Position numbers and translations under genes: made by a program | Notes under the pieces: model-generated | Told to the model about the DNA's origin: nothing | What the model saw: only the letters and a program-made list of their open reading frames with translations | The model's database searches: none | Origin: Candidatus Levybacteria bacterium RIFCSPLOWO2_01_FULL_42_15 | GTDB taxonomy: Bacteria; Patescibacteriota; Microgenomatia; Levybacterales; UBA12049 | Direction of reading: 5' to 3' | Assembly: GCA_001784055.1 (NCBI GenBank) | Contig: MFOZ01000019.1 | Coordinates: 18,593 to 82,592, forward strand | DNA length: 64,000 nucleotides | Shown: one piece after another, positions 23,782 to 55,909 of the stretch | Numbering within the stretch: position 1 is the first letter of the stretch | Layout: each line of letters starts with the position of its first letter

Positions 23782-24330
23782 ATGAAAATAGGAATTGATG
23801 TAAGCCAGCTGGTATATTCTAACACTGGAGTAGCAAACTACTTAGAGAACTTGGTTCAATGTTTGCTTAAGGTTGATAAGGAGAATGAGTACGTATTCTT
23901 CTTTTCCTCTTTAAGAAGAAAATTTCTAATTTCTAATTTCAAATTTTTAAATAAATCCCAATTTTTAAATCCCAAAATTAAGATAAATACATTTAAAATA
24001 CCGCCTGTTTTATTAGATTTCCTTTGGAATAGGTTGCATATTGTACCAATAGAGTGGTTTATTGGAGATGTTGATGTATTTATTTCCTCGGATTGGACGC
24101 AGCCACCTACTAAAAAAGCCAAAAAAGCGACGATTCTGTACGATCTTATTGTGCATAAATATCCCAATGAAACGGACAAAAAAATTGTAGATACGCAAAG
24201 AAGAAGACTTACGTGGGTGAAAAAAGAATGCGATGTGGTATTTTGTATATCGGAATCAACAAAAAAGGATGCGATGGAGATTCTGGGAATTGAGAAGAGA
24301 AAGCTAAAGGTTATTTATCCCGGGATTTAA
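23782..24330 (+). CDS. Truncated GT4-family glycosyltransferase paralog (N-terminal Rossmann domain only)
   Basis: MKIGIDVSQLVYSNTGVANY... aligns with the N-domain of the downstream full-length GT4 (MIIGIDGNEANVQRRVGISEY...). It ends at KVIYPGI, the linker VVTYPGV in the full-length copy. No C-domain follows in any frame. Confidence 0.5.
   Translation: MKIGIDVSQLVYSNTGVANYLENLVQCLLKVDKENEYVFFFSSLRRKFLISNFKFLNKSQFLNPKIKINTFKIPPVLLDFLWNRLHIVPIEWFIGDVDVFISSDWTQPPTKKAKKATILYDLIVHKYPNETDKKIVDTQRRRLTWVKKECDVVFCISESTKKDAMEILGIEKRKLKVIYPGI
23921..23948. repeat. Heptanucleotide tandem repeat (AATTTCT)2(AATTTCA)(AATTTTT) inside the truncated GT4 CDS
   Basis: Direct reading of sequence 23921-23948, followed by a second AAATCCCA duplication. 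Confidence 0.8.
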
Positions 24331-24381: not shown

Positions 24382-25566
24382 ATGATAATAGGTATTGATG
24401 GGAATGAGGCGAACGTACAGAGACGAGTAGGTATTTCGGAGTACGGCTTCGAACTTCTTAAGAATTTCAAATTTCAAATTTCAAATTTCAAATTTCAAAT
24501 TTACCTTAAAAAGCCTCCCTTGCCTCATATGCCTAAGGAACGAGACGGATGGCGATATAGAATTGTTCGGCCAGAAAAGTTATGGACGCAGATAGGTCTA
24601 CCGATCGATTTGTTCTTTCATAAGCCTCGTCCGGATGTGTTTTTTAGCCCCACGCATTACGCTCCTCGTTTTTCTCCTGTTAACTGCGCAATTTCAATCA
24701 TGGACGTATCGTATTTGCGTTTTCCTTCTCTGTTTAATGCGTCGGATTTGTATCAGCTCAAGAACTGGACCGCTTATTCGGTAAAAAAAGCAGTGAAAAT
24801 CTTTACCATAAGTAAATCAAGTAAAAATGATATAATAAAAGCGTATGGTGTGTCTGAAGAAAAAGTAGTGGTGACATACCCGGGAGTAAAATTCAAAAAT
24901 ATGGTTCGACAAACTCACCATCCTGAGCAAAGTCGAAGGACAATGCAAAATTCAAAAGTACTAGAGAAATACGGAGTTGATAGGAATTATGTTCTTTTTG
25001 TTGGGACGCTGCAACCAAGGAAGAACATTGAACGGCTCATCGAAGCCTTCAGCCTTGTTTGTCATCCTGAACTTGTTTCAGGATCTCAATCAAAACGAGA
25101 TTCTGACCTTCGTCAGAATGACATCCAACTTATAATCGTTGGCAAGAAAGGATGGCTGTACGAGGACATCCTAGAGGCGCCCAAAAAATTTGGAGTAGAA
25201 AATAGCGTCAAGTTTCTGGAGTTTGTTCCAGAAGAGGATCTTTCGAGCCTCTATCAAAATGCTCTTTTTTTTATTCTTCCCAGTTTATACGAAGGGTTTG
25301 GGTTGCCGGTGCTTGAGGCAATGAGCTACGGGTGTCCTGTAATAACCAGTAATGTGAGTAGTCTTCCTGAAGTAGGGGGAGATGCGGTTCTGTACGTAGA
25401 TCCGTTAAGTACAAGTGATATCTGTGAAAAAATGAGGATGATATTTTTGGATGAAAAGCTTCGCGCCGAACTTCAAAAAAAGGGATACGAGCAGGTTAAA
25501 AAGTTCAACTGGGAAAAAACAGCAAAACAGACACTTGATATTTTAGAAAATCTCGCGCAAAAATAA
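24382..25566 (+). CDS. GT4-family (glycosyl transferase group 1) glycosyltransferase
   Basis: N-domain MIIGIDGNE... C-domain motifs LFVGTLQPRKNIERLIEAF, FILPSLYEGFGLPVLEAMSYGCPVITSNVSSLPEV (E-x7-E). Confidence 0.85.
   Translation: MIIGIDGNEANVQRRVGISEYGFELLKNFKFQISNFKFQIYLKKPPLPHMPKERDGWRYRIVRPEKLWTQIGLPIDLFFHKPRPDVFFSPTHYAPRFSPVNCAISIMDVSYLRFPSLFNASDLYQLKNWTAYSVKKAVKIFTISKSSKNDIIKAYGVSEEKVVVTYPGVKFKNMVRQTHHPEQSRRTMQNSKVLEKYGVDRNYVLFVGTLQPRKNIERLIEAFSLVCHPELVSGSQSKRDSDLRQNDIQLIIVGKKGWLYEDILEAPKKFGVENSVKFLEFVPEEDLSSLYQNALFFILPSLYEGFGLPVLEAMSYGCPVITSNVSSLPEVGGDAVLYVDPLSTSDICEKMRMIFLDEKLRAELQKKGYEQVKKFNWEKTAKQTLDILENLAQK
24463..24504. repeat. Heptanucleotide tandem repeat (AATTTCA)x5 plus AATTTAC inside the GT4 CDS
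   Basis: Direct reading. Encodes NFKFQISNFKFQIY. The unit length is not a multiple of 3. Confidence 0.9.
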
Positions 25567-30137: not shown

Positions 30138-31598
30138 ATGATACGCAAAAAAGAAATAATAGCTCTTTTTCTTATTCTTACTTTGGGTTTTATCGTTCGG
30201 CTCTATAAGTTTACTAATCCTATTGCCGACTGGCATTCGTGGAGACAATCAGACACGTCTTCCGTATCCAGAAACTTTGTGAAATACGGGTTTGATCTTC
30301 TTCATCCACGGTTTGATGATCTATCTAACGGCGTGTCGCTTCTTGACAATCCGAAAGGATACCGTTTCGTAGAATTTCCAATCTACAACGTGTTTCAAGC
30401 CGGACTCTTTGAGTTGTTTCATACGTTTACTATTGAAGAGTGGGGTCGATTAGTTAGTATTGCGTCAGTTTTGATTGCAACGGTTTTTCTCTATCTTTTG
30501 GTGAGGGAATATGTATCTTCTCGCGCAGGTCTTTTTGCCGCATTTTTTTACGCACTCCTTCCGTATAATATTTATTTCGGTCGCGTTATCTTGCCGGATA
30601 CGCTGATGGTTGCCTTCATGCTTGGGGGGTTATATTTTTTTGATGCGTGGACAAAAAAAATCAAAACAAATCAAAAACGCGTTCAGGCACTCTTATTTTT
30701 TATGCTCGCGGTTCTGTTTACAGCATCTGCTATTCTTATCAAACCGTTCGTTCTATTCTACGGATTAGCTTTTGTTTATATTCTCATAAAAAGATTTGGA
30801 TGGCGTTTACTGAAGCGATGGGATATATGGCTGTTTGCGATTCTTTGCCTTTTGCCCTTTGTTCTTTGGAGAGCGTGGATGCAGCAATATCCGGAAGGAA
30901 TTCCTAGAAACGATTGGCTATACAATGGGAATGGGATCCGTTTTAGAGGAGCATTTTTTTGGTGGATTTTTGCGGAACGAATTGGAAAAAACATGCTTGG
31001 ATATTGGGGCCTTCCCATTATTGTTATTGGACTTATTTCTAAAATAAAAGAGAAAGATACTTGGTTCTTTTTTACCTTTATTATTGCGTCTCTTCTTTAT
31101 ATAAGCGTATTTGCAACAGGGAATGTTCAGCATGATTATTACCAGATTCTTATTGTGCCAACGCTTGCCATTTTTTTTGCCAAGGGAGCAGAAGCAATCG
31201 TTGAATTTTCTTCCCATGCCTTCCATAAATTCCTCGCCTTAGCAACGTTTGCGATCTGTGTTGTCTTTATGTTTATGTTTGGGTGGAGAGAAATCAGGGC
31301 ATTTTACAACATTGATCATCCGGAAATTGTTGAAGCAGGGCGCGCGATTGACGCGCTTACCCCAAAAAATGCAAAGATTATTGCGATATACAACGGAGAT
31401 ACAACCTTTCTCTATCATACAAATAGACAAGGATGGCCAGTCTTTGAAAGATCTATAAAAGATTTTGTAAAGGCAGGGGCAACCCACATAGCGTTTGTAA
31501 ATCAAGGAGAAAAAGAATCAAACTTTGCAAATGAATTTAATACGGTCAAAGTAACAGAACGATATGCAATATTTGATCTTACAAAAAAGAAAAAATGA
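30138..31598 (+). CDS. GT-C-type membrane glycosyltransferase, family 39/ArnT/PMT-like
   Basis: Start IRKKEIIALFLILTLGFIVRLY..., then a WRQSDT loop motif, then about 11 TM helices. Start taken at the Met after the upstream stop. Confidence 0.6.
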   Translation: MIRKKEIIALFLILTLGFIVRLYKFTNPIADWHSWRQSDTSSVSRNFVKYGFDLLHPRFDDLSNGVSLLDNPKGYRFVEFPIYNVFQAGLFELFHTFTIEEWGRLVSIASVLIATVFLYLLVREYVSSRAGLFAAFFYALLPYNIYFGRVILPDTLMVAFMLGGLYFFDAWTKKIKTNQKRVQALLFFMLAVLFTASAILIKPFVLFYGLAFVYILIKRFGWRLLKRWDIWLFAILCLLPFVLWRAWMQQYPEGIPRNDWLYNGNGIRFRGAFFWWIFAERIGKNMLGYWGLPIIVIGLISKIKEKDTWFFFTFIIASLLYISVFATGNVQHDYYQILIVPTLAIFFAKGAEAIVEFSSHAFHKFLALATFAICVVFMFMFGWREIRAFYNIDHPEIVEAGRAIDALTPKNAKIIAIYNGDTTFLYHTNRQGWPVFERSIKDFVKAGATHIAFVNQGEKESNFANEFNTVKVTERYAIFDLTKKKK

Positions 31599-32881
31599 AC
31601 ATTTTAGTTGTTTCCTCTTTTTTGCCGTATCCTTTGTTTTCAGGGGGACATATCCGCCTTTACAGCATTATAAAAGAGCTTTCTAGAAGGCATACCATAA
31701 CGCTTATCTGCGAAAAGAGAAAGCATCAGACAGAAGATGACGTAAAAGAGGTTGAGAAAATTTGCGAGGTAATCTGGGTTGAGCGAAAACAACAATGGTC
31801 AATAAAGAATATTCTTCAAGCAGGATTCTCTCCATACCCTTTCTTAATGACAGGGCACACAAATTCGGAAATGAAGAAAAGAATAGAGGATGTTTTGAGA
31901 CAAAGAAAAATCGATGTAATCCACATTGAGACATTTTACGTCTACCAAAACATGCCCCGGGTTTTGATTCCGACCGTTTTGGTGGAGCATAACATAGAGT
32001 ATTTAGTTTATAAACGATTTGCCGATTCGGCTCCAAAATTCATAAAACATCTTCTCCTTTTGGATATATTAAAGATGCGGTATTGGGAGCAAAAATTTTG
32101 GCAGAAAGCAACAAAGCTTGTTGCCGTATCGGAGCAGGAAAAAAACATGATGACAAGAGACGATGTAGCAGTGGTACCAAATGGGGTAGACGTAAATAAG
32201 TTCAAAGTCAGGCGTTCAGAGTTAAAAGTTAACGATAGAGAAAAGAGAGTTTTATTTATTGGGGATTTTCGGTGGATTCAAAATAGGGATGCGCTTGAAT
32301 GGATTCTCAAAGAGATATGGCCGGAAATAAGTTCAAAGTTCCCCACTTCGCCAAGGCTTCGAGGGGCGAGCGAAGTTCAAAGTTCCCCAGCCTCGCCAAG
32401 CGAAGCCTCGCCAAAGGCGGGCGAAGCAGGGCGGGCAAAGTTATTGCTTTGGATTGTAGGCAGAGACATTCCAAGTTCGCTTAAAAAGCTCACTAAGGAT
32501 GATAGCATTATGTTTGATGAGAACGCATCAGAAAATACTACCGAAATCTTCAAAAAAGCGGACATATTGCTTGCGCCGATACGCATTGGCGGTGGGACAA
32601 GCTTTAAGATTTTAGAGGCTATGGCAAGCGGTGTTCCTGTGGTGACAACGTCTCTTGGTATAGAAGGAATAGGCGCAATAAAAAATAAAGAAGTACTTAT
32701 TGCGAATACATCATATGAATTTGGAGAAGAAACAAATAGAGTTCTGCGAAATCCCCATCTTTATAAAGAGCTTGCAGGAAACGCGCGTAAACTCATTGAA
32801 GAGAAGTATGATTGGGACGTTATTGTTAAAAAACTGGAAGATGTATATACGTCTGCCGTATATCATGCAGGGGCAATATGA
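31595..32881 (+). CDS. GT4-family glycosyltransferase carrying an in-frame GC-rich repeat-element insertion
   Basis: N-domain MNILVVSSFLPYPLFSGGHIRLYS. C-domain LLAPIRIGGGTSFKILEAMASGVPVVTT. A low-complexity insert, SSKFPTSPRLRGASEVQSSPASPSEASPKAGEAGRAK, interrupts the EIWPEI...LLLWIVG junction. Confidence 0.8.
   Translation: MNILVVSSFLPYPLFSGGHIRLYSIIKELSRRHTITLICEKRKHQTEDDVKEVEKICEVIWVERKQQWSIKNILQAGFSPYPFLMTGHTNSEMKKRIEDVLRQRKIDVIHIETFYVYQNMPRVLIPTVLVEHNIEYLVYKRFADSAPKFIKHLLLLDILKMRYWEQKFWQKATKLVAVSEQEKNMMTRDDVAVVPNGVDVNKFKVRRSELKVNDREKRVLFIGDFRWIQNRDALEWILKEIWPEISSKFPTSPRLRGASEVQSSPASPSEASPKAGEAGRAKLLLWIVGRDIPSSLKKLTKDDSIMFDENASENTTEIFKKADILLAPIRIGGGTSFKILEAMASGVPVVTTSLGIEGIGAIKNKEVLIANTSYEFGEETNRVLRNPHLYKELAGNARKLIEEKYDWDVIVKKLEDVYTSAVYHAGAI
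32329..32442. repeat. Tandem pair (44 bp + 70 bp) of a GC-rich intragenic repeat element; second copy at 48419-48487
   Basis: Both units start aagttcaaagttcccca. Unit 2 (ttcaaagttccccagcctcgccaagcgaagcctcgccaaaggcgggcgaagcagggcgggcaaagtt) matches the murE copy (ttcaaaattccccggcctcgctccgcgaagcctcgccaaaggcgggcgaagcgggacgggcaaaatt) nearly base for base. Confidence 0.85.
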
Positions 32882-34996: not shown

Positions 34997-36121
34997 ATGA
35001 AGGTTGCATTAGTGTACGACCGATTGAACAAATGGGGAGGAGCGGAGCGAGTGCTTCTATCGCTTCGCGAACTTTTTCCAGATGCTCCATTGTATACATC
35101 GGTGTATCATGCTAAGAGAGCTTCCTGGGCAAAAGAATTTGTTGTTAAATCGTCTTTTCTCCAACGATTCCCATACGCGGCATCTTCCCACGAACCATAT
35201 GCAATATTCATGCCTTTGGCGTTTGAGAGTTTTTCCTTTGATAGATACGATTTAGTTATTTCCGTAACCAGCGAAAGCGCAAAGGGTATTATCACAAAGC
35301 CAAACACGATACATATTTGCTATTGCCTTACCCCCACAAGATATTTATGGAGCGGTTATGATGAATATTTTACAAGTTCAGCTGTCCGTTTTTTGTCAAA
35401 GCCTGCTGTTTCTTATTTGAGAGCTTGGGATAAAATTGCAGCTCAAAGGCCAGATGCATATATTGCGATTTCAAAAGAGGTTCAAAAAAGAATTAAAAAA
35501 TATTATGAAAGAGAATCAACTGTTATATATCCTCCCGTAGCAATAGACGGTAGAAGATGGAATAGAGAAGATAGTAATTTGAAGATAGAAGATAGAGTGT
35601 CGAAAGGATATTTTCTTATTGTATCTCGTTTTGTCCCGTATAAAAAAATCGATATCGCAATAAAGGCCTGTAGCCGGCTCAAGTTGCCTCTTAAAATAGT
35701 TGGTTCCGGAGCACAAGAGGGGTATCTTCGGTCTCTTGCGGGGCCTACGGTTGAGTTTCTTGGTAACTTGACTGACAAAGAGTTACTAAGCTATTATAAG
35801 AATAGTTGGGCACTCCTTTTTCCGGGGCATGAGGATTTTGGCATAGTAATCGTGGAGGCGTTAGCAAGCGGAACGCCTGTAATTGCGTTTAAGAATGGGG
35901 GTGCCCTTGAAATAATAAAAGAAGGGAAAACAGGGGCATTCTTTTATCCACAGACAGTGGAATCATTGGAGAGCGTATTGCAATCGTTTAGTCCGGTTGA
36001 CTATCAAGCGGACGAATGCAGAAAAAGCGTTATGCAATTTGAAAAAAAGAGATTCCTAAAGGAGTTCAGGCAAGCAGTTGAGGCGCTTTTTCTTGCGCAC
36101 AAAAAGAAAAAGATGATATGA
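34997..36121 (+). CDS. GT4-family glycosyltransferase
   Basis: MKVALVYDRLNKWGGAERV. FPGHEDFGIVIVEALASGTPVIAFKNGGALEII. Confidence 0.8.
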   Translation: MKVALVYDRLNKWGGAERVLLSLRELFPDAPLYTSVYHAKRASWAKEFVVKSSFLQRFPYAASSHEPYAIFMPLAFESFSFDRYDLVISVTSESAKGIITKPNTIHICYCLTPTRYLWSGYDEYFTSSAVRFLSKPAVSYLRAWDKIAAQRPDAYIAISKEVQKRIKKYYERESTVIYPPVAIDGRRWNREDSNLKIEDRVSKGYFLIVSRFVPYKKIDIAIKACSRLKLPLKIVGSGAQEGYLRSLAGPTVEFLGNLTDKELLSYYKNSWALLFPGHEDFGIVIVEALASGTPVIAFKNGGALEIIKEGKTGAFFYPQTVESLESVLQSFSPVDYQADECRKSVMQFEKKRFLKEFRQAVEALFLAHKKKKMI

Positions 36122-43996: not shown

Positions 43997-44443
43997 ATGA
44001 TGCTTCTTGGACAGTACGAAGCAAAATTAGGAGCAAAAAATAGAATAGCGTTCCCAAAAAAACTAAGAGCAATATTGGGAGACAAGCTTATCATCACGAA
44101 AGGATATGAAAACTCGCTCATTATTGTTTCCGAGAAAGGGTGGAAAGCACTTCTTGAAGGAACAGAGGGAAGGCCGTTTATCCATTCAGAAACCAGAGAT
44201 ACGCAACGATTCATCCTTGGAGGAGCAAGCTTCATGGAGCTTGATAGTAAAGGAAGGTTTATATTGCCTTTATACTTACGAAGCTTTGCAAGAATTAAAG
44301 AGGAAACGATATTCCTAGGCCTATCTCGCTACGTGGAAATGTGGGATAGAGATGTTTGGCTTGAATACACAAAGAACCTTGATAAGCATATTGGATTAAT
44401 TTCAGAGCGGCTGCTTAAGGGAACTGAAGAGAAAAGTGAATAG
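43997..44443 (+). CDS. mraZ: Transcriptional regulator MraZ
   Basis: Duplicated SpoVT/AbrB-like halves (AKLGAKNRIAFPKKLR...; ELDSKGRFILPLYLR). 148 aa. First gene of the dcw cluster. Confidence 0.9.
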   Translation: MMLLGQYEAKLGAKNRIAFPKKLRAILGDKLIITKGYENSLIIVSEKGWKALLEGTEGRPFIHSETRDTQRFILGGASFMELDSKGRFILPLYLRSFARIKEETIFLGLSRYVEMWDRDVWLEYTKNLDKHIGLISERLLKGTEEKSE

Positions 44444-45368
44444 CACATTTCATACGCCGGTACTTGTACAAGAGGTACTTTTATTTCTTGCCGTACAGAA
44501 GGATAAAACGTATATTGACGCAACGATAGGGGGAGGAGGACACGGGTTTGAGATTTTAAAACGAGACGGGATAGTTTTGGGGATAGACGTTGATGAAGAA
44601 GCAATTGATTACGTAAAGAAGATATTAAGAGATAAAGATATTAAGATATTGGGAGAGAAATATGACAGTTCACTTAATATCTCACTATCTCAATATCCTG
44701 GTATCACTTTAGTACGAGGAAATTTTAAAGACATAGCAAGGATTGTACAGGGAACAGAATTTGAGAGGGTAGAAGGAATTTTGTTTGACTTGGGAGTATC
44801 GAGCATGCAGTTGGATACTTCCAAAAGGGGATTCAGTTTTCAAAAAGAAGCTCCATTGGACATGCGCATGGATCAAAGGCTGCACGTTAAGGCGATGGAT
44901 CTTCTTAACGGATTAACAAAAAAGGAGTTATATGAATTATTTACTAAGTTTGGTGAAGAGCGTTTTGCTCACGCCATTTCTGGTGGTATTGTCAGCACCC
45001 GTGGAATAAAAAAAATTACCACAACCAAAGAATTGGCAATGTTAGTAGAGAAGATTGCGGGAAGAAGACATGACATCCATCCGGTAACAAAAGTATTTCA
45101 AGCCTTACGAATTGCGGTTAACGATGAGTTGCATAACCTAGAACTTGGCTTAACAGATTCCGTTGAGCTTCTTAACAAAAACGGAAAGCTTGTTGTTATA
45201 TCCTTTCACTCATTAGAGGATAGGATTGTCAAAAGAACATTTTTACGGTTTGAAAAAGAAGGGAGAGGAACGGTAATAACAAAGAAGCCGGTGCGCCCGA
45301 GCCAAAAGGAAGTTTTCTTAAACAGACGAGCAAGAAGCGCACTGCTTAGGGTATTTGCAAAAGCATAA
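44436..45368 (+). CDS. rsmH: 16S rRNA (cytosine1402-N4)-methyltransferase
   Basis: HTPVLVQEVL...YIDATIGGGGH; FDLGVSSMQLD; ISFHSLEDRIVK. Confidence 0.9.
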   Translation: MNSTFHTPVLVQEVLLFLAVQKDKTYIDATIGGGGHGFEILKRDGIVLGIDVDEEAIDYVKKILRDKDIKILGEKYDSSLNISLSQYPGITLVRGNFKDIARIVQGTEFERVEGILFDLGVSSMQLDTSKRGFSFQKEAPLDMRMDQRLHVKAMDLLNGLTKKELYELFTKFGEERFAHAISGGIVSTRGIKKITTTKELAMLVEKIAGRRHDIHPVTKVFQALRIAVNDELHNLELGLTDSVELLNKNGKLVVISFHSLEDRIVKRTFLRFEKEGRGTVITKKPVRPSQKEVFLNRRARSALLRVFAKA

Positions 45369-47429: not shown

Positions 47430-48689
47430 ATGTGGCAAGAGATTAAGAATGTATATCACTTGCTGGTTGCGGTTGCGGCGCAGGTGTGGTTTGGGTTTCC
47501 GTCAAGAAAGCTTAAGGTGATTGGGGTTACCGGAACCGATGGAAAGACAACTACGGTGAACCTGATTTATCATATACTACACACGTGCGGATATTCGGTC
47601 TCCATGATTTCAACCGTTGGAGCAATCATTAACGGAGAAAAAAAAGATCTTGGTTTTCATGTGACAAATCCTTCCTCATGGCAATTAAATTCCTTTATCA
47701 AGAAAGCGGCAGAAAAAAGTAGCTATCTTGTTCTTGAGGTTACATCTCACGGAATAGATCAGCATCGTATTTTTGGCATTCCTTTTGCAATTGGAGTGAT
47801 GACCAACGTTACAAACGAACATCTAGACTATCACAAAACGTATGATCGCTATCTTCAGACAAAAGTAAAATTGTTAAAACGATCCCGTATTGCCATTGTA
47901 AATCAGGATGACGGATCGCATAAAGCGATTATGCTGCTTCTTAAAGATGGAAACCGAATGGATCGAAAAGTAATTACGTATGGGAAGACGAAGTCTCCCA
48001 TGGTGAATCCGCTTGTCTACGCCTTTAAGACAAAATTGATCGGTAATTTTAATCGATCAAACGAGGGAGCTGCAATCGCAACTGTTCTTGCCCTAAACGT
48101 TAAGGAATCTTGCATCAAAGCCGCTTGTGAAAGCTTTGAGGCTCCAATTGGACGACAACAGGTAGTATATGAAGGCGATTTTACCGTAATGATTGATTTT
48201 GCCCACACCCCCAATGCTATTGAAGAGTTTCTACATTCGATCAAACCTGGTGTCAAGGGGAGACTCATTCACGTTTTTGGAAGCGCGGGAGAGCGCGACA
48301 GAAAGAAAAGACCAGAAATGGGAAAGGCATCAGCTAACTATTCGGATGTTATTATCTTAACTGCAGAGGATCCCCGGTCGGAATCGGTTGCAAAAATCAT
48401 AAACGAGATTGAATCAGGAATCGTTAATAATTCAAAATTCCCCGGCCTCGCTCCGCGAAGCCTCGCCAAAGGCGGGCGAAGCGGGACGGGCAAAATTCAA
48501 AGTGCAAAATTGTTCAAAATATCAAACAGACAGGAAGCAATCAATACTGCAATTAAAATAGCGCAAAAGGGAGATTTTGTTCTCGTTACGGGAAAAGGGC
48601 ATGAGAAGTCTATGAACTTTGGACGCGGAGAAATACCGTGGAGTGAATATGACAGCGTAAAAGAAGCACTTGTAGCAAGAAAATTATGA
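47430..48689 (+). CDS. murE: Mur ligase, MurE-like (UDP-MurNAc-L-Ala-D-Glu:diamino-acid ligase) with very short N-terminal domain and an in-frame repeat-element insertion
   Basis: P-loop VIGVTGTDGKTTT at residue about 33. EDPR (DNPR-like) motif. C-terminal insert KFPGLAPRSLAKGGRSGTGKIQSAK, encoded by the GC-rich element. Confidence 0.7.
   Translation: MWQEIKNVYHLLVAVAAQVWFGFPSRKLKVIGVTGTDGKTTTVNLIYHILHTCGYSVSMISTVGAIINGEKKDLGFHVTNPSSWQLNSFIKKAAEKSSYLVLEVTSHGIDQHRIFGIPFAIGVMTNVTNEHLDYHKTYDRYLQTKVKLLKRSRIAIVNQDDGSHKAIMLLLKDGNRMDRKVITYGKTKSPMVNPLVYAFKTKLIGNFNRSNEGAAIATVLALNVKESCIKAACESFEAPIGRQQVVYEGDFTVMIDFAHTPNAIEEFLHSIKPGVKGRLIHVFGSAGERDRKKRPEMGKASANYSDVIILTAEDPRSESVAKIINEIESGIVNNSKFPGLAPRSLAKGGRSGTGKIQSAKLFKISNRQEAINTAIKIAQKGDFVLVTGKGHEKSMNFGRGEIPWSEYDSVKEALVARKL
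48419..48487. repeat. GC-rich intragenic repeat element (copy inside murE), same family as 32329-32442
   Basis: See the 32329-32442 repeat feature. About 75% GC in roughly 30% GC surroundings. Flanked by aattcaaa(a/g) direct repeats. Confidence 0.85.
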
Positions 48690-54148: not shown

Positions 54149-55909
54149 ATGTGTGGAATATTCGGTTACGTCGGAAAACAAAATAATGCGGCCCAGATTG
54201 TTCTTGAAGGACTAAGGCTTCTGGAATATCGCGGGTATGATTCATGGGGAATTGCGGTAAAAAGCGGAAAGAAGCTTATGGTGAATAAGCAGGTGGGGAA
54301 AATAGAATCCGCCAAAACGACTCTTTCTGCAAGCTTTCTTGGTATTGGGCATACAAGGTGGGCGACTCATGGAGGAGTGACAGAAAACAATGCTCATCCT
54401 CATCTTGACTGCAAACAAGAAATAGCACTGGTGCATAACGGGATTGTAGAAAATTTTGTTGCGTTAAAAGAAGAATTGATAATTAGAGGACATAGTTTTA
54501 ATTCGGAAACAGACACAGAGGTAATTGTTCATCTTATCGAGGAGTATTTAAAAAAAGAAGGATTTGCCTCATCGGTGCGTGATTCATTTAATAGGCTTAA
54601 AGGACTAAACGCAATTGTTGTTGCCTACGCTGTCTCTCGTCAAATTATTGCCTGCAAAACAGGATCTTCCTTGGTGGTTGGTCAAAAAAATAGCGATTTC
54701 TATATTGCCTCGGACGCATTGGGAATAACAGACCACACAAAGAAGCTTTTCTTTCTTAAAGATGGAGAAATGGTCATACTGGGAGAAAAGTTGCAACTCA
54801 TAAGCATTGCAAACGGTAAAAAGTTAAAAGCAAATTTCGAAACAATACATTGGAAGCAGGAAGACTCCAAAATTGGAAATTTTAATCACTTTATGGAGAA
54901 GGAAATTTATGAACAACCACGCGTTGTGCGTACCATAGCAAGAACTGCCGATCAGGATATTATTTCATTAAGCAGAACAATTAAACGAGCTAGGGGAACT
55001 TTTTTTATAGGCGCAGGAACGGCCTTTCATGCCTGCCTTGCGGGGACATACCTATTCTCCGGAATCGCAAAAATCCATGTTAATACAGCGGTCGCATCTG
55101 AATTTAATTATCTGGAGGATTTTTTAACCAAAGAAAGTCTCATTATCGCGCTTTCCCAATCGGGGGAAACGATAGATGTTCTTGAGCCTCTCAATAGAGC
55201 GAAGGGGAAAGGAAGCAGAATTGTGGCGCTTACCAATGTTTTGGGCTCTTCGCTGTATAGGCTTGCTGATCACTCCCTTATTTTGGGTGCGGGAGTTGAA
55301 AAAGCAGTAGCTTCAACAAAGGCATATACTGCAAAGCTTGCTCTTTTACTTATGCTTGCGCACGCAATGAATGGAGAGATAAAAAAAGCAAAGAAAAATC
55401 TTCTTGAAACGTCAAAAGAAATACAAAGACTCCTCAGCGCTCCAAGCAGAAAAAACATACGAAAGATTGCGTTGGTTCTTAAGTCATCCGAGCATATCTA
55501 TACTATTGGGAGAGGAGTATCTTATCCAACAGCACTGGAAGCCGCCCTTAAGATTAAAGAGGTAAGCTATATACACACAGAAGGACTTGCGGGAGGAGAG
55601 TTAAAACATGGAACGCTCGCGCTTGTTGAAAAAGGAACGCCGTGTATTGTATTTGCTCCCAATGATGACACCTATGAGGCAATGATTTCCAACGCGATTG
55701 AGATCAAATCAAGAGGAGGAGTAATCATTGGCATAAGTACTAAAAAGTCTTCTGTTTTTGACTACTTTATAGAAGTTCGCGACATGGGATGGGCACGTAT
55801 TATCGCTCAAATTATCCCCGCACAGCTTTTGGCATACTATTTAGCGGTAGAGAGAGGATGCGATCCAGATAAACCTCGCAATTTAGCAAAAAGCGTAACC
55901 GTAAAGTAA
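54149..55909 (+). CDS. glmS: Glutamine--fructose-6-phosphate aminotransferase (isomerizing)
   Basis: MCGIFGY Ntn-Cys. Two SIS domains. C-terminal ...KPRNLAKSVTVK. Confidence 0.9.
   Translation: MCGIFGYVGKQNNAAQIVLEGLRLLEYRGYDSWGIAVKSGKKLMVNKQVGKIESAKTTLSASFLGIGHTRWATHGGVTENNAHPHLDCKQEIALVHNGIVENFVALKEELIIRGHSFNSETDTEVIVHLIEEYLKKEGFASSVRDSFNRLKGLNAIVVAYAVSRQIIACKTGSSLVVGQKNSDFYIASDALGITDHTKKLFFLKDGEMVILGEKLQLISIANGKKLKANFETIHWKQEDSKIGNFNHFMEKEIYEQPRVVRTIARTADQDIISLSRTIKRARGTFFIGAGTAFHACLAGTYLFSGIAKIHVNTAVASEFNYLEDFLTKESLIIALSQSGETIDVLEPLNRAKGKGSRIVALTNVLGSSLYRLADHSLILGAGVEKAVASTKAYTAKLALLLMLAHAMNGEIKKAKKNLLETSKEIQRLLSAPSRKNIRKIALVLKSSEHIYTIGRGVSYPTALEAALKIKEVSYIHTEGLAGGELKHGTLALVEKGTPCIVFAPNDDTYEAMISNAIEIKSRGGVIIGISTKKSSVFDYFIEVRDMGWARIIAQIIPAQLLAYYLAVERGCDPDKPRNLAKSVTVK

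Follow-up and report, generated by a model that had tools for sequence, protein, structure and literature searches.

The 64-kb window analysed here is a stretch of 64,000 nt from a Candidatus Levybacteria genome, and its murE gene carries a small GC-rich palindromic element that is read in frame as part of the protein. The gene lies in a division and cell wall (dcw) cluster, together with mraZ, rsmH, a penicillin-binding protein gene, another Mur ligase gene, murB and murA. The 419-residue product of this open reading frame (ORF) matches the Pfam families Mur_ligase_M (PF08245, 5.8e-36) and Mur_ligase_C (PF02875, 1e-26), and the best solved structure is that of T. maritima MurE (4bub, 1.7e-55). 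In its domains and P-loop, in a motif of the D(N/D)PR type and in its place in the dcw cluster, it corresponds to MurE. None of the columns invariant in 52 homologs is altered, and these include the GTDGKTT P-loop and EDPR. The protein and its Levybacteria homologs (~397 residues) start at a point equivalent to residue ~89 in T. maritima MurE, and the N-terminal Mur ligase domain 1 appears to be absent from all of them. Judged by its conserved residues, the enzyme is probably intact, interrupted by the element yet not disrupted.

Three near-identical copies of the element are present in three unrelated genes: murE, a GT4-type glycosyltransferase gene of the same window, and a recJ gene on a metagenome contig. 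All are read in frame. The murE copy is embedded in heptamer arrays within a hypervariable loop, predicted to be disordered, and it is fixed in the sampled population. The coordinates in the window are collected in Table 1.

Table 1. The element in murE, its flanking heptamer units and the related units in the GT4 gene.
Feature	Position	Strand	Basis
Inserted core, 51-nt GC-rich imperfect palindrome, 17 codons, PGLAPRSLAKGGRSGTG	48440-48490	+	sequence, GC scan, folding, heptamer register
Central core, 28 nt, GCGAAGCCTCGCCAAAGGCGGGCGAAGC, hairpin bracketed by two GCGAAGC heptamers	48455-48482	+	exact repeats
Left-hand heptamers AATCGTT AATAATT CAAAATT, aligned in register to the edge of the core	48419-48439	+	
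Right heptamer units CAAAATT CAAAGTG CAAAATT	48491-48511	+	
murE ORF with in-frame insert, 419 aa, Mur_ligase_M and Mur_ligase_C, no N-terminal domain 1	47430-48689	+	
Unit B of the GT4 gene (31595-32881), the 51-nt sister copy, CAAAGTT flanks, different frame (SPASPSEASPKAGEAGRA)	32385-32435	+	
Unit A, GC-rich, related to B, shorter and upstream of it, partly complementary to B	32341-32377	+	

The 51-nt core in murE has a GC content of ~78%, compared with 37.6% for the window, and stands between three heptamer units on either side. A scan in 40-nt windows found only two stretches exceeding ~70% GC, 32381-32441 and 48435-48495 (72-78%). They belong to a 67-nt repeat pair (32376-32442 and 48431-48497) with 88% identity and an exact core of 28 nt, and a 23-mer, GCCTCGCCAAAGGCGGGCGAAGC, occurs exactly twice in the window, at 32405 and 48460, against an expectation of 0.00 from 100 shuffles. 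An earlier reading of this DNA, made from the sequence only, had described the murE segment as the second copy of an element also present in the GT4 gene, which these repeats bear out; the segment itself is real, although the positions given for it, 48419-48487, were about 10 nt too low. The 28-nt core GCGAAGCCTCGCCAAAGGCGGGCGAAGC is identical in the GT4 copy, in the recJ copy and in other genomes of the candidate phyla radiation (CPR).

As RNA, the murE core folds with -29.3 kcal/mol on the plus strand and -34.3 kcal/mol on the minus strand (z -3.3). Strand asymmetry (G:U versus C:A pairs) gave no evidence for a structure specific to RNA, since both strands fold about equally well. Terminator and promoter scans found none at the murE or the GT4 copy. 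Searched against Rfam 15, the element had no match at E<=10 except a chance 11-bit match nearby; the whole window had no match at the gathering thresholds, and six loci with the 28-nt core gave nothing relevant. The length of the murE core is a multiple of three (3n) and none of its six frames contains a stop codon, so that it is simply translated. It is read in the murE frame as ...NNSKFPGLAPRSLAKGGRSGTGKIQSAK... (in wider context, ...GIVNNSKFPGLAPRSLAKGGRSGTGKIQSAKLFKISNRQEAI...), and the translation proposed earlier agrees with that of the 419-residue ORF.

In the GT4 gene, where a single element had been proposed, the copy is present, but the site consists of two units, A and B. Together with the heptamers they add up to 102 nt, or 34 codons, and the insert corresponds to residues ~252-283, some 32-34 residues without a counterpart in any homolog. 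A population variant of this protein (P0130, from SRR3989344) has a 15-nt in-frame deletion (SPSEA) between two GCCTCGCCAA repeats, which is an in-frame slippage inside the element.

The third copy was found in a recJ gene encoding 586 residues, on a metagenome contig of the same sample or Rifle population, and differs from the murE copy by one mismatch in the 51-nt core. Its flanks, AATTCAAAATT and CAAAATTCAAAATG, and its frame, KNSKFPGLAPRSLAKGGRSGAGKIQN, equal those of the murE copy. Seven RecJ variants, with differences at 3-28 other positions out of 586, all have the same insert peptide. The same loop occurs in three states among RecJ homologs: minimal (QEIKNGEEDNHL), heptamer-type (ISNFKFQISNKSQSPKTKIQN) and occupied by a variety of palindromic elements (VILNSFQDL…MLKQVQHD). 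Another 30-nt hairpin, between AATCTCY heptamers, is found in a second loop of RecJ. Taken together, the copies are read in two frames and give unrelated peptides, PRSLAKGGRS versus SEASPKAGEA. An assembly chimera is found in a 1,214-bp ENA contig (P0131), which fuses the 5' part of RecJ to the 3' part of MurE across the shared element. The window contains a 586-residue ORF at 54149-55909, which was considered as its own recJ with an empty site and proved to be unrelated to RecJ; by eye, it may be GlmS-like.

The insert lies inside the C-terminal domain of MurE, as had been suggested. The match to Mur_ligase_C spans residues 241-390, with 150 residues for a 127-position profile. In the alignment to 4bub, which covers residues 14-333 and 364-413, 30 residues of the query stand against ~6 in the structure, and the insert would thus take the place of a turn of ~6 residues. 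An AlphaFold2 model built on 52 homologs (mean pLDDT, the predicted local distance difference test score, of 86.8) has only one segment with pLDDT <50, residues 338-358, between the helix 320-332 and the strand 361-363. The insert is therefore predicted to form a disordered surface loop, starting ~17 residues past the EDPR motif. Among 120 Levybacteria MurE homologs, the equivalent loop (I331-R367) is 10-36 residues long (median 16.5, peak at 17); the 35-residue loop of the protein studied here is the second longest. The earlier proposal of a permissive loop is upheld by the predicted disorder, the structural alignment and the homolog loop lengths.

Many homologs have peptides of the 'NSKFKIQN' type in this loop, and a few have other G/A/P/R-rich inserts. 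At the nucleotide level, the loop of one insert-free homolog (P0030) is encoded by a perfect (AATTCAA)x4.6 array, GGAATTCAAAATTCAAAATTCAAAATTCAAAATTTA. An unrelated 39-nt GC palindrome occupies the same junction in another (P0002), with CAAAATT on both sides. Two further homologs carry 30-nt hairpins at that junction, one of which shares CTCGCTCCGCGA with the murE element (P0007), while the other contains GCCTCGCCAAAGGCGGG and lies within an (AAGTTAG)n array (P0028). Excision of the 51 nt and three heptamers (72 nt) from the gene would leave 'GIVNNSK/LFKISNRQEAI', equal in length to the shortest homologs. MurE also has other insertion hot spots, for example at query residue 91 with LCHPELVSGSKSPRAEMP, a peptide family that is present in several homologs.

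The sequence-only reading had raised the possibility of a chimeric assembly. A false join, or contamination, at a repeat has some basis, since this repeat does cause misjoins, as in the RecJ-MurE fusion, and one contig ends in junk within murE. The latter (P0001; 299 residues, 99% identical MurE) had been considered as an insert-free allele, but its contig runs into poly-G/poly-A sequence before the loop is reached (L008 6880-7002). Against an artefact, the ENA, JGI and NCBI assemblies have 15 contigs (10-200 kb) that encode the identical 419-residue protein, which is annotated in three Candidatus Levybacteria metagenome-assembled genomes from Rifle (OGH23929.1, OGH33954.1 and OGH42889.1). Three fetched loci are identical to the window across the gene, with 0 nucleotide differences, the sequence on either side of the insert is MurE, in one and the same frame, and can be aligned with solved structures of MurE, and the synteny of the dcw cluster is kept. 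Because of the 15 contigs and the three nucleotide-identical loci, misassembly is excluded for practical purposes, and we regard its probability as negligible. Insert-free alleles, suggested as a possibility for the population, were absent from the assembled contigs found for this species.

A very recent insertion, which had also been considered, is not supported by these data, as the murE copy is fixed in every contig found and the recJ copy is unchanged across the seven RecJ variants. An alternative is a domesticated insertion with a function, either as an mRNA hairpin of the dcw operon that acts in pausing, processing or stability, or as a basic, Gly-rich interaction surface shared by MurE, RecJ and the GT4 protein. 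The insert peptide is constant in the RecJ variants despite up to 28 other differences, and in all MurE contigs; the 28-nt core is exactly conserved across different Microgenomates lineages, and related elements occur in the same MurE and RecJ loops of other lineages. However, the three copies are read in two frames as unrelated peptides, disorder is predicted for the insert, which is missing from most homologs, and the same site is occupied elsewhere by unrelated hairpins. The element also has no Rfam family and no terminator-like site, and the GT4 copy tolerates the 15-nt in-frame deletion of P0130. We consider a functional insertion improbable.

A common feature of the hairpins is their relation to heptamer arrays. 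Once the sequence is set in heptamer register, units of the local array stand on both sides of every hairpin. The heptamer varies from locus to locus, yet the two sides of each copy agree (CAAAATT versus CAAAGTT versus AAGTTAG). At 6 of 7 hairpin loci, the hairpin abuts an exact direct repeat of 7 nt or more, compared with 0.3% of random window segments. These flanking repeats are 7-12 nt long and are members of the arrays. The 'aattcaaa(a/g)' direct repeats that had been noted at murE do exist, with starts at 48429 and 48494 instead of 48419 and 48483. They are spaced by 65 nt, and the exact 7-mer CAAAATT (48433 and 48491) by 58 nt, neither of which is a multiple of three. The cores delimited by heptamer units, on the other hand, are 30, 39 or 51 nt long, all multiples of three, in seven of eight cases. 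Perfect heptamer arrays also occur where there is no hairpin, in P0030, at 24462-24502 of the window, and in two further loci (L022 and L023).

These features bear on whether the element is a MITE (miniature inverted-repeat transposable element) of the classical type, with a 7-bp target-site duplication (CAAAATT), in which case the arrays would be footprints of repeated insertion and excision. The arms of the murE element are indeed inverted repeats, exact 7-mers abut the core in MurE, RecJ, GT4 unit B and P0002, and the 7-mer varies by locus while matching on both sides of a copy (CAAAATT vs CAAAGTT). In addition, the loop lengths of the homologs peak at the minimal length plus 7 residues, which equals three heptamers. 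However, core and duplication together would measure 58, 46 or 37 nt, a frameshift in every case, while the cores by themselves are 3n; at murE, the 58 nt would break the reading frame. The flanking repeats have no fixed length, the arrays can be perfect without a hairpin, and no parent insertion sequence was found in gene lists for ~64 kb and ~40 kb of the genome. A MITE of this type thus seems rather unlikely. The 'direct repeats' are probably units of pre-existing arrays and not target-site duplications, because the cores are 3n and perfect arrays exist where hairpins are absent. Likewise, insertion at heptamer boundaries would have taken place without duplication, since the cores alone are 3n and the addition of 7 bp always shifts the frame; we infer this event and its exact boundaries by reconstruction.

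The array at 24462-24502, a perfect (AATTTCA)x5.7, encodes NFKFQISNFKFQI in a glycosyltransferase ORF. Two further arrays are located in glycosyltransferase ORFs, (AATTTCT/A)x4 at 23920-23946 and an imperfect (ATAGAAG)x7.7 at 35543-35596. These arrays could act as phase-variation switches of surface-polysaccharide genes, because slippage by a unit would shift the frame.

The 3n lengths are also relevant to the idea that the element is skipped by the ribosome, which would take off at the AAA codon of 48435 and land at that of 48492, as in the 'byp' elements of yeast mitochondria or in T4 gene 60, or that it is excised from the RNA. GC clusters are the origin of the bypass elements in yeast mitochondria, and the murE element has a stable GC hairpin flanked by matching codons and direct repeats, with an in-frame distance of 57 nt from AAA to AAA. 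However, all three genes keep an open, continuous frame across the element, and the 3n length of seven of the eight cores is expected only under translation. The would-be take-off codon is not followed by a stop codon, and no bacterial machinery is known to act in this way on chromosomal genes. The matched AAA codons are the only characteristic shared with bypass elements, the frame being continuous and the cores 3n. Bypass or excision is very unlikely. As with the functional loop, its low probability follows from the 3n rule and from copies in different frames.

The 28-nt core GCGAAGCCTCGCCAAAGGCGGGCGAAGC recurs exactly in Levybacteria and Daviesbacteria genomes, in long ORFs that adjoin heptamer arrays. 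Daviesbacteria GyrA and another long ORF contain it in frame (L003 2149-2192 and L005 6190-6231; SEASPKAGEA), adjoining (GTCATCA)x4 or (GTCGTCA)x4 arrays, the former in GyrA. The association of hairpins with heptamers thus extends past the Levybacteria. The core is also nested in GTCATTGCGAGCGAAGC-type palindromes (L002 and L007), and is found within a duplicated tRNA-Lys 3' end. The element looks modular, with an inner hairpin of 21-28 nt nested in an outer hairpin of ~30 nt. Two matches carry the labels Gammaproteobacteria and Nitrospira; CPR-like heptamer arrays adjoin one of the two, and the labels likely result from mis-binning. The metagenome scan for the core gave at least 7 loci and was not exhaustive, as it missed the window's own JGI contig. 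No match was present in the viral contigs scanned. The exact 51-nt form is rare: a six-frame peptide search with a concatenated query against 5.8 billion proteins returned 2 matches only, the RecJ-MurE chimera P0131 and an out-of-frame call over the recJ copy.

Two loci deserve separate mention. The duplicated tRNA-Lys 3' end (L017 9708-9764, and L014) is a second copy ~150 nt downstream of the tRNA (GGTTCAAG…AGTCCTACTGGGGGCACCA), with the core in the T-loop, and looks like an att-type duplication. At L023 780-807, in an apparently intergenic stretch, a hairpin CCTCGCCAAAGGCGGGG with the same stem-loop as the element core is followed by TTT and looks like a terminator.

We conclude that the segment in murE is quite probably one copy of a palindromic repeat, GC-rich, non-autonomous and very small, that is tolerated in a permissive loop and is neutral or nearly so. 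The 51-nt core contains a 28-nt module common to Microgenomates genomes, and the copy would have entered a unit boundary of an older (CAAAATT)n array encoding the C-terminal surface loop of MurE. Being 3n and free of stop codons, it would be translated and add 17 residues (21-25 with the array) just past the helix that follows the EDPR substrate-specificity motif. Most likely, the element is 'selfish' DNA that is neutral or nearly neutral and is seen only where selection tolerates it, in permissive loops and at 3n lengths. It would have no function for the host. Its mobility could depend on a trans-acting activity that recognises the hairpin, such as a Y1/HUH-type enzyme or an RNA-mediated route, or could result from ectopic conversion between arrays.

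Several observations weigh against this conclusion. No transposase, RAYT (REP-associated tyrosine transposase; REP, repetitive extragenic palindromic sequence) or reverse transcriptase was present in the returned gene lists or in the few ORFs scanned in the window, most of which is unannotated. The insertion is reconstructed rather than observed, with no insert-free allele and the nearest MurE homolog only 61% identical. In this form the family is low-copy, with 2-3 units in the 64 kb and 2 further proteins among the 5.8 billion, and the 37 nt of GT4 unit A do not by themselves obey the 3n rule. The murE and recJ copies share ~9 nt on the left and 7 nt on the right beyond the innermost heptamer, which fits either a larger mobile unit of 72-81 nt or conversion between arrays. 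Exact matches in the MurE and RecJ loops of other lineages (P0028 and P0134) could represent ancient insertions kept similar by concerted evolution.

Tentatively, and with more doubt than confidence, we suggest that the element represents an undescribed system of Levybacteria and, more widely, of the Microgenomates (CPR), in which hairpin modules of 21-51 nt enter exactly at the unit boundaries of heptamer arrays without duplication, possibly by an HUH-type or RNA-mediated route, and in which arrays and modules together keep remodelling the surface loops of essential proteins such as MurE, RecJ, GyrA and glycosyltransferases. If this is true, these modules would be among the smallest mobile elements, a CPR counterpart of the small dispersed repeats (SDRs) of cyanobacteria and of the Rickettsia palindromic elements (RPEs). 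That a CPR bacterium shows behaviour like that in Rickettsia, with a far smaller GC-rich hairpin set in heptamer arrays, points to a general route by which tiny repeats give rise to new disordered protein loops in reduced, AT-rich genomes. The rules on 3n length and heptamer boundaries provide a testable signature for the mobilising activity. There are also practical consequences. The repeats cause chimeric contigs, of which one was found; they would inflate the apparent divergence and length variation of proteins in CPR gene families, and they could be mistaken for functional domain insertions.

Other palindromes and oddities were observed in the window. In another GT4-type glycosyltransferase (ORF 24382-25566), a different palindrome at 25057-25120, TGTCATCCTGAACTTGTTTCAGGATCTC…GAGATTCTGACCTTCGTCAGAATGACA, is in frame and read as CHPELVSGSQSKRDSDLRQND. 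It belongs to the same peptide family (LCHPELVSGSKSPRAEMP) as the inserts of several MurE homologs. By eye, it precedes a β-strand, 'IQLIIVGKKG', that is the apparent counterpart of 'KLLLWIVGRD' after the GC-rich element at 32.3 kb. In rsmH (44436-45368), an AT-rich in-frame palindrome at 44619-44697 consists of 8-mer arrays, AAGATATT x4 and AATATCTC x2.8, with arms of 25 nt that are 80% complementary, and may be another insertion. The ORF at 23782-24330, directly upstream of a full-length glycosyltransferase, encodes only an N-terminal Glyco_transf_4 half (182 residues) that stops at the domain boundary, and may be a truncated duplicate or a pseudogene.

To our knowledge, selfish repeats inside essential protein-coding genes are textbook material only for Rickettsia. 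There, the RPEs are described as palindromic, in-frame selfish DNA in unrelated housekeeping genes (Ogata et al. 2000, as cited in PMC10969869). On that description, they resemble the murE element in being palindromic, in frame and translated, in occupying sites where the fold tolerates them, and in belonging to a small AT-rich genome with no known transposase. The murE element is likewise an in-frame palindrome at a fold-compatible site. By the same description, however, RPEs are ~100-150 bp long and encode a peptide conserved in one frame, whereas the murE element has 51 nt (72-81 with flanks), is GC-rich, is read in different frames, is embedded in heptamers and belongs to a CPR host, Candidatus Levybacteria instead of Rickettsia; the two are compared by description only.

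In cyanobacteria, Elhai and colleagues (Genome Res 2008) reportedly described eight SDR families (SDR1-8) of 21-27 nt that are nested in heptameric tandem repeats (short tandemly repeated repetitive sequences, STRR), and SDRs are said to be confined to Nostocaceae and to be mostly intergenic. They share with the murE element the form of tiny hairpin repeats in heptamer arrays or other small repeats, the nested and modular organisation, the lack of a recognisable transposase and no obvious duplication. The murE element is, in the same manner, a hairpin repeat well under 100 nt at a defined position in a heptamer array. It differs in being in frame in essential CPR genes and in following the 3n rule, and the SDR sequences, compared by description, are called unrelated. 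It would be at most an analogue of the SDRs. A later paper that cites this work mentions the insertion of SDR5 in HIP1 (PMC5861425).

The mobile GC clusters of yeast mitochondria (e.g. GC42) are GC palindromes of 30-60 nt in a very AT-rich genome, which merge and shuffle and are occasionally intragenic (PMC4478555). They resemble the murE element in size, in the GC-rich palindrome and in the constrained hairpin structure, but they are mitochondrial, duplicate an AG target dinucleotide, are mostly intergenic and have no heptamer arrays (PMC4478555). REPs and REPINs are imperfect GC-rich palindromes of 20-40 nt that are mobilised by RAYT (Y1 HUH) transposases (PMC3733652), and insertion without target duplication would fit a single-strand enzyme that recognises hairpins. 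REPs, however, are extragenic, high-copy and tagged by GTAG or CGTC, whereas the murE family is intragenic. Membership in the REP/RAYT system was rejected, as all three copies are intragenic and the tags are not conserved, CGTC being confined to the MurE copy, on its reverse strand. Nor did the available gene lists, which cover part of the genome, contain a RAYT gene. No description of in-frame palindromic or heptamer repeats was found in the literature on CPR/Patescibacteria. By size, sequence or host, the murE element falls outside all these families; it appears closest to the RPEs in behaviour, to the cyanobacterial SDRs in architecture, and to the yeast mitochondrial GC clusters in composition and size.

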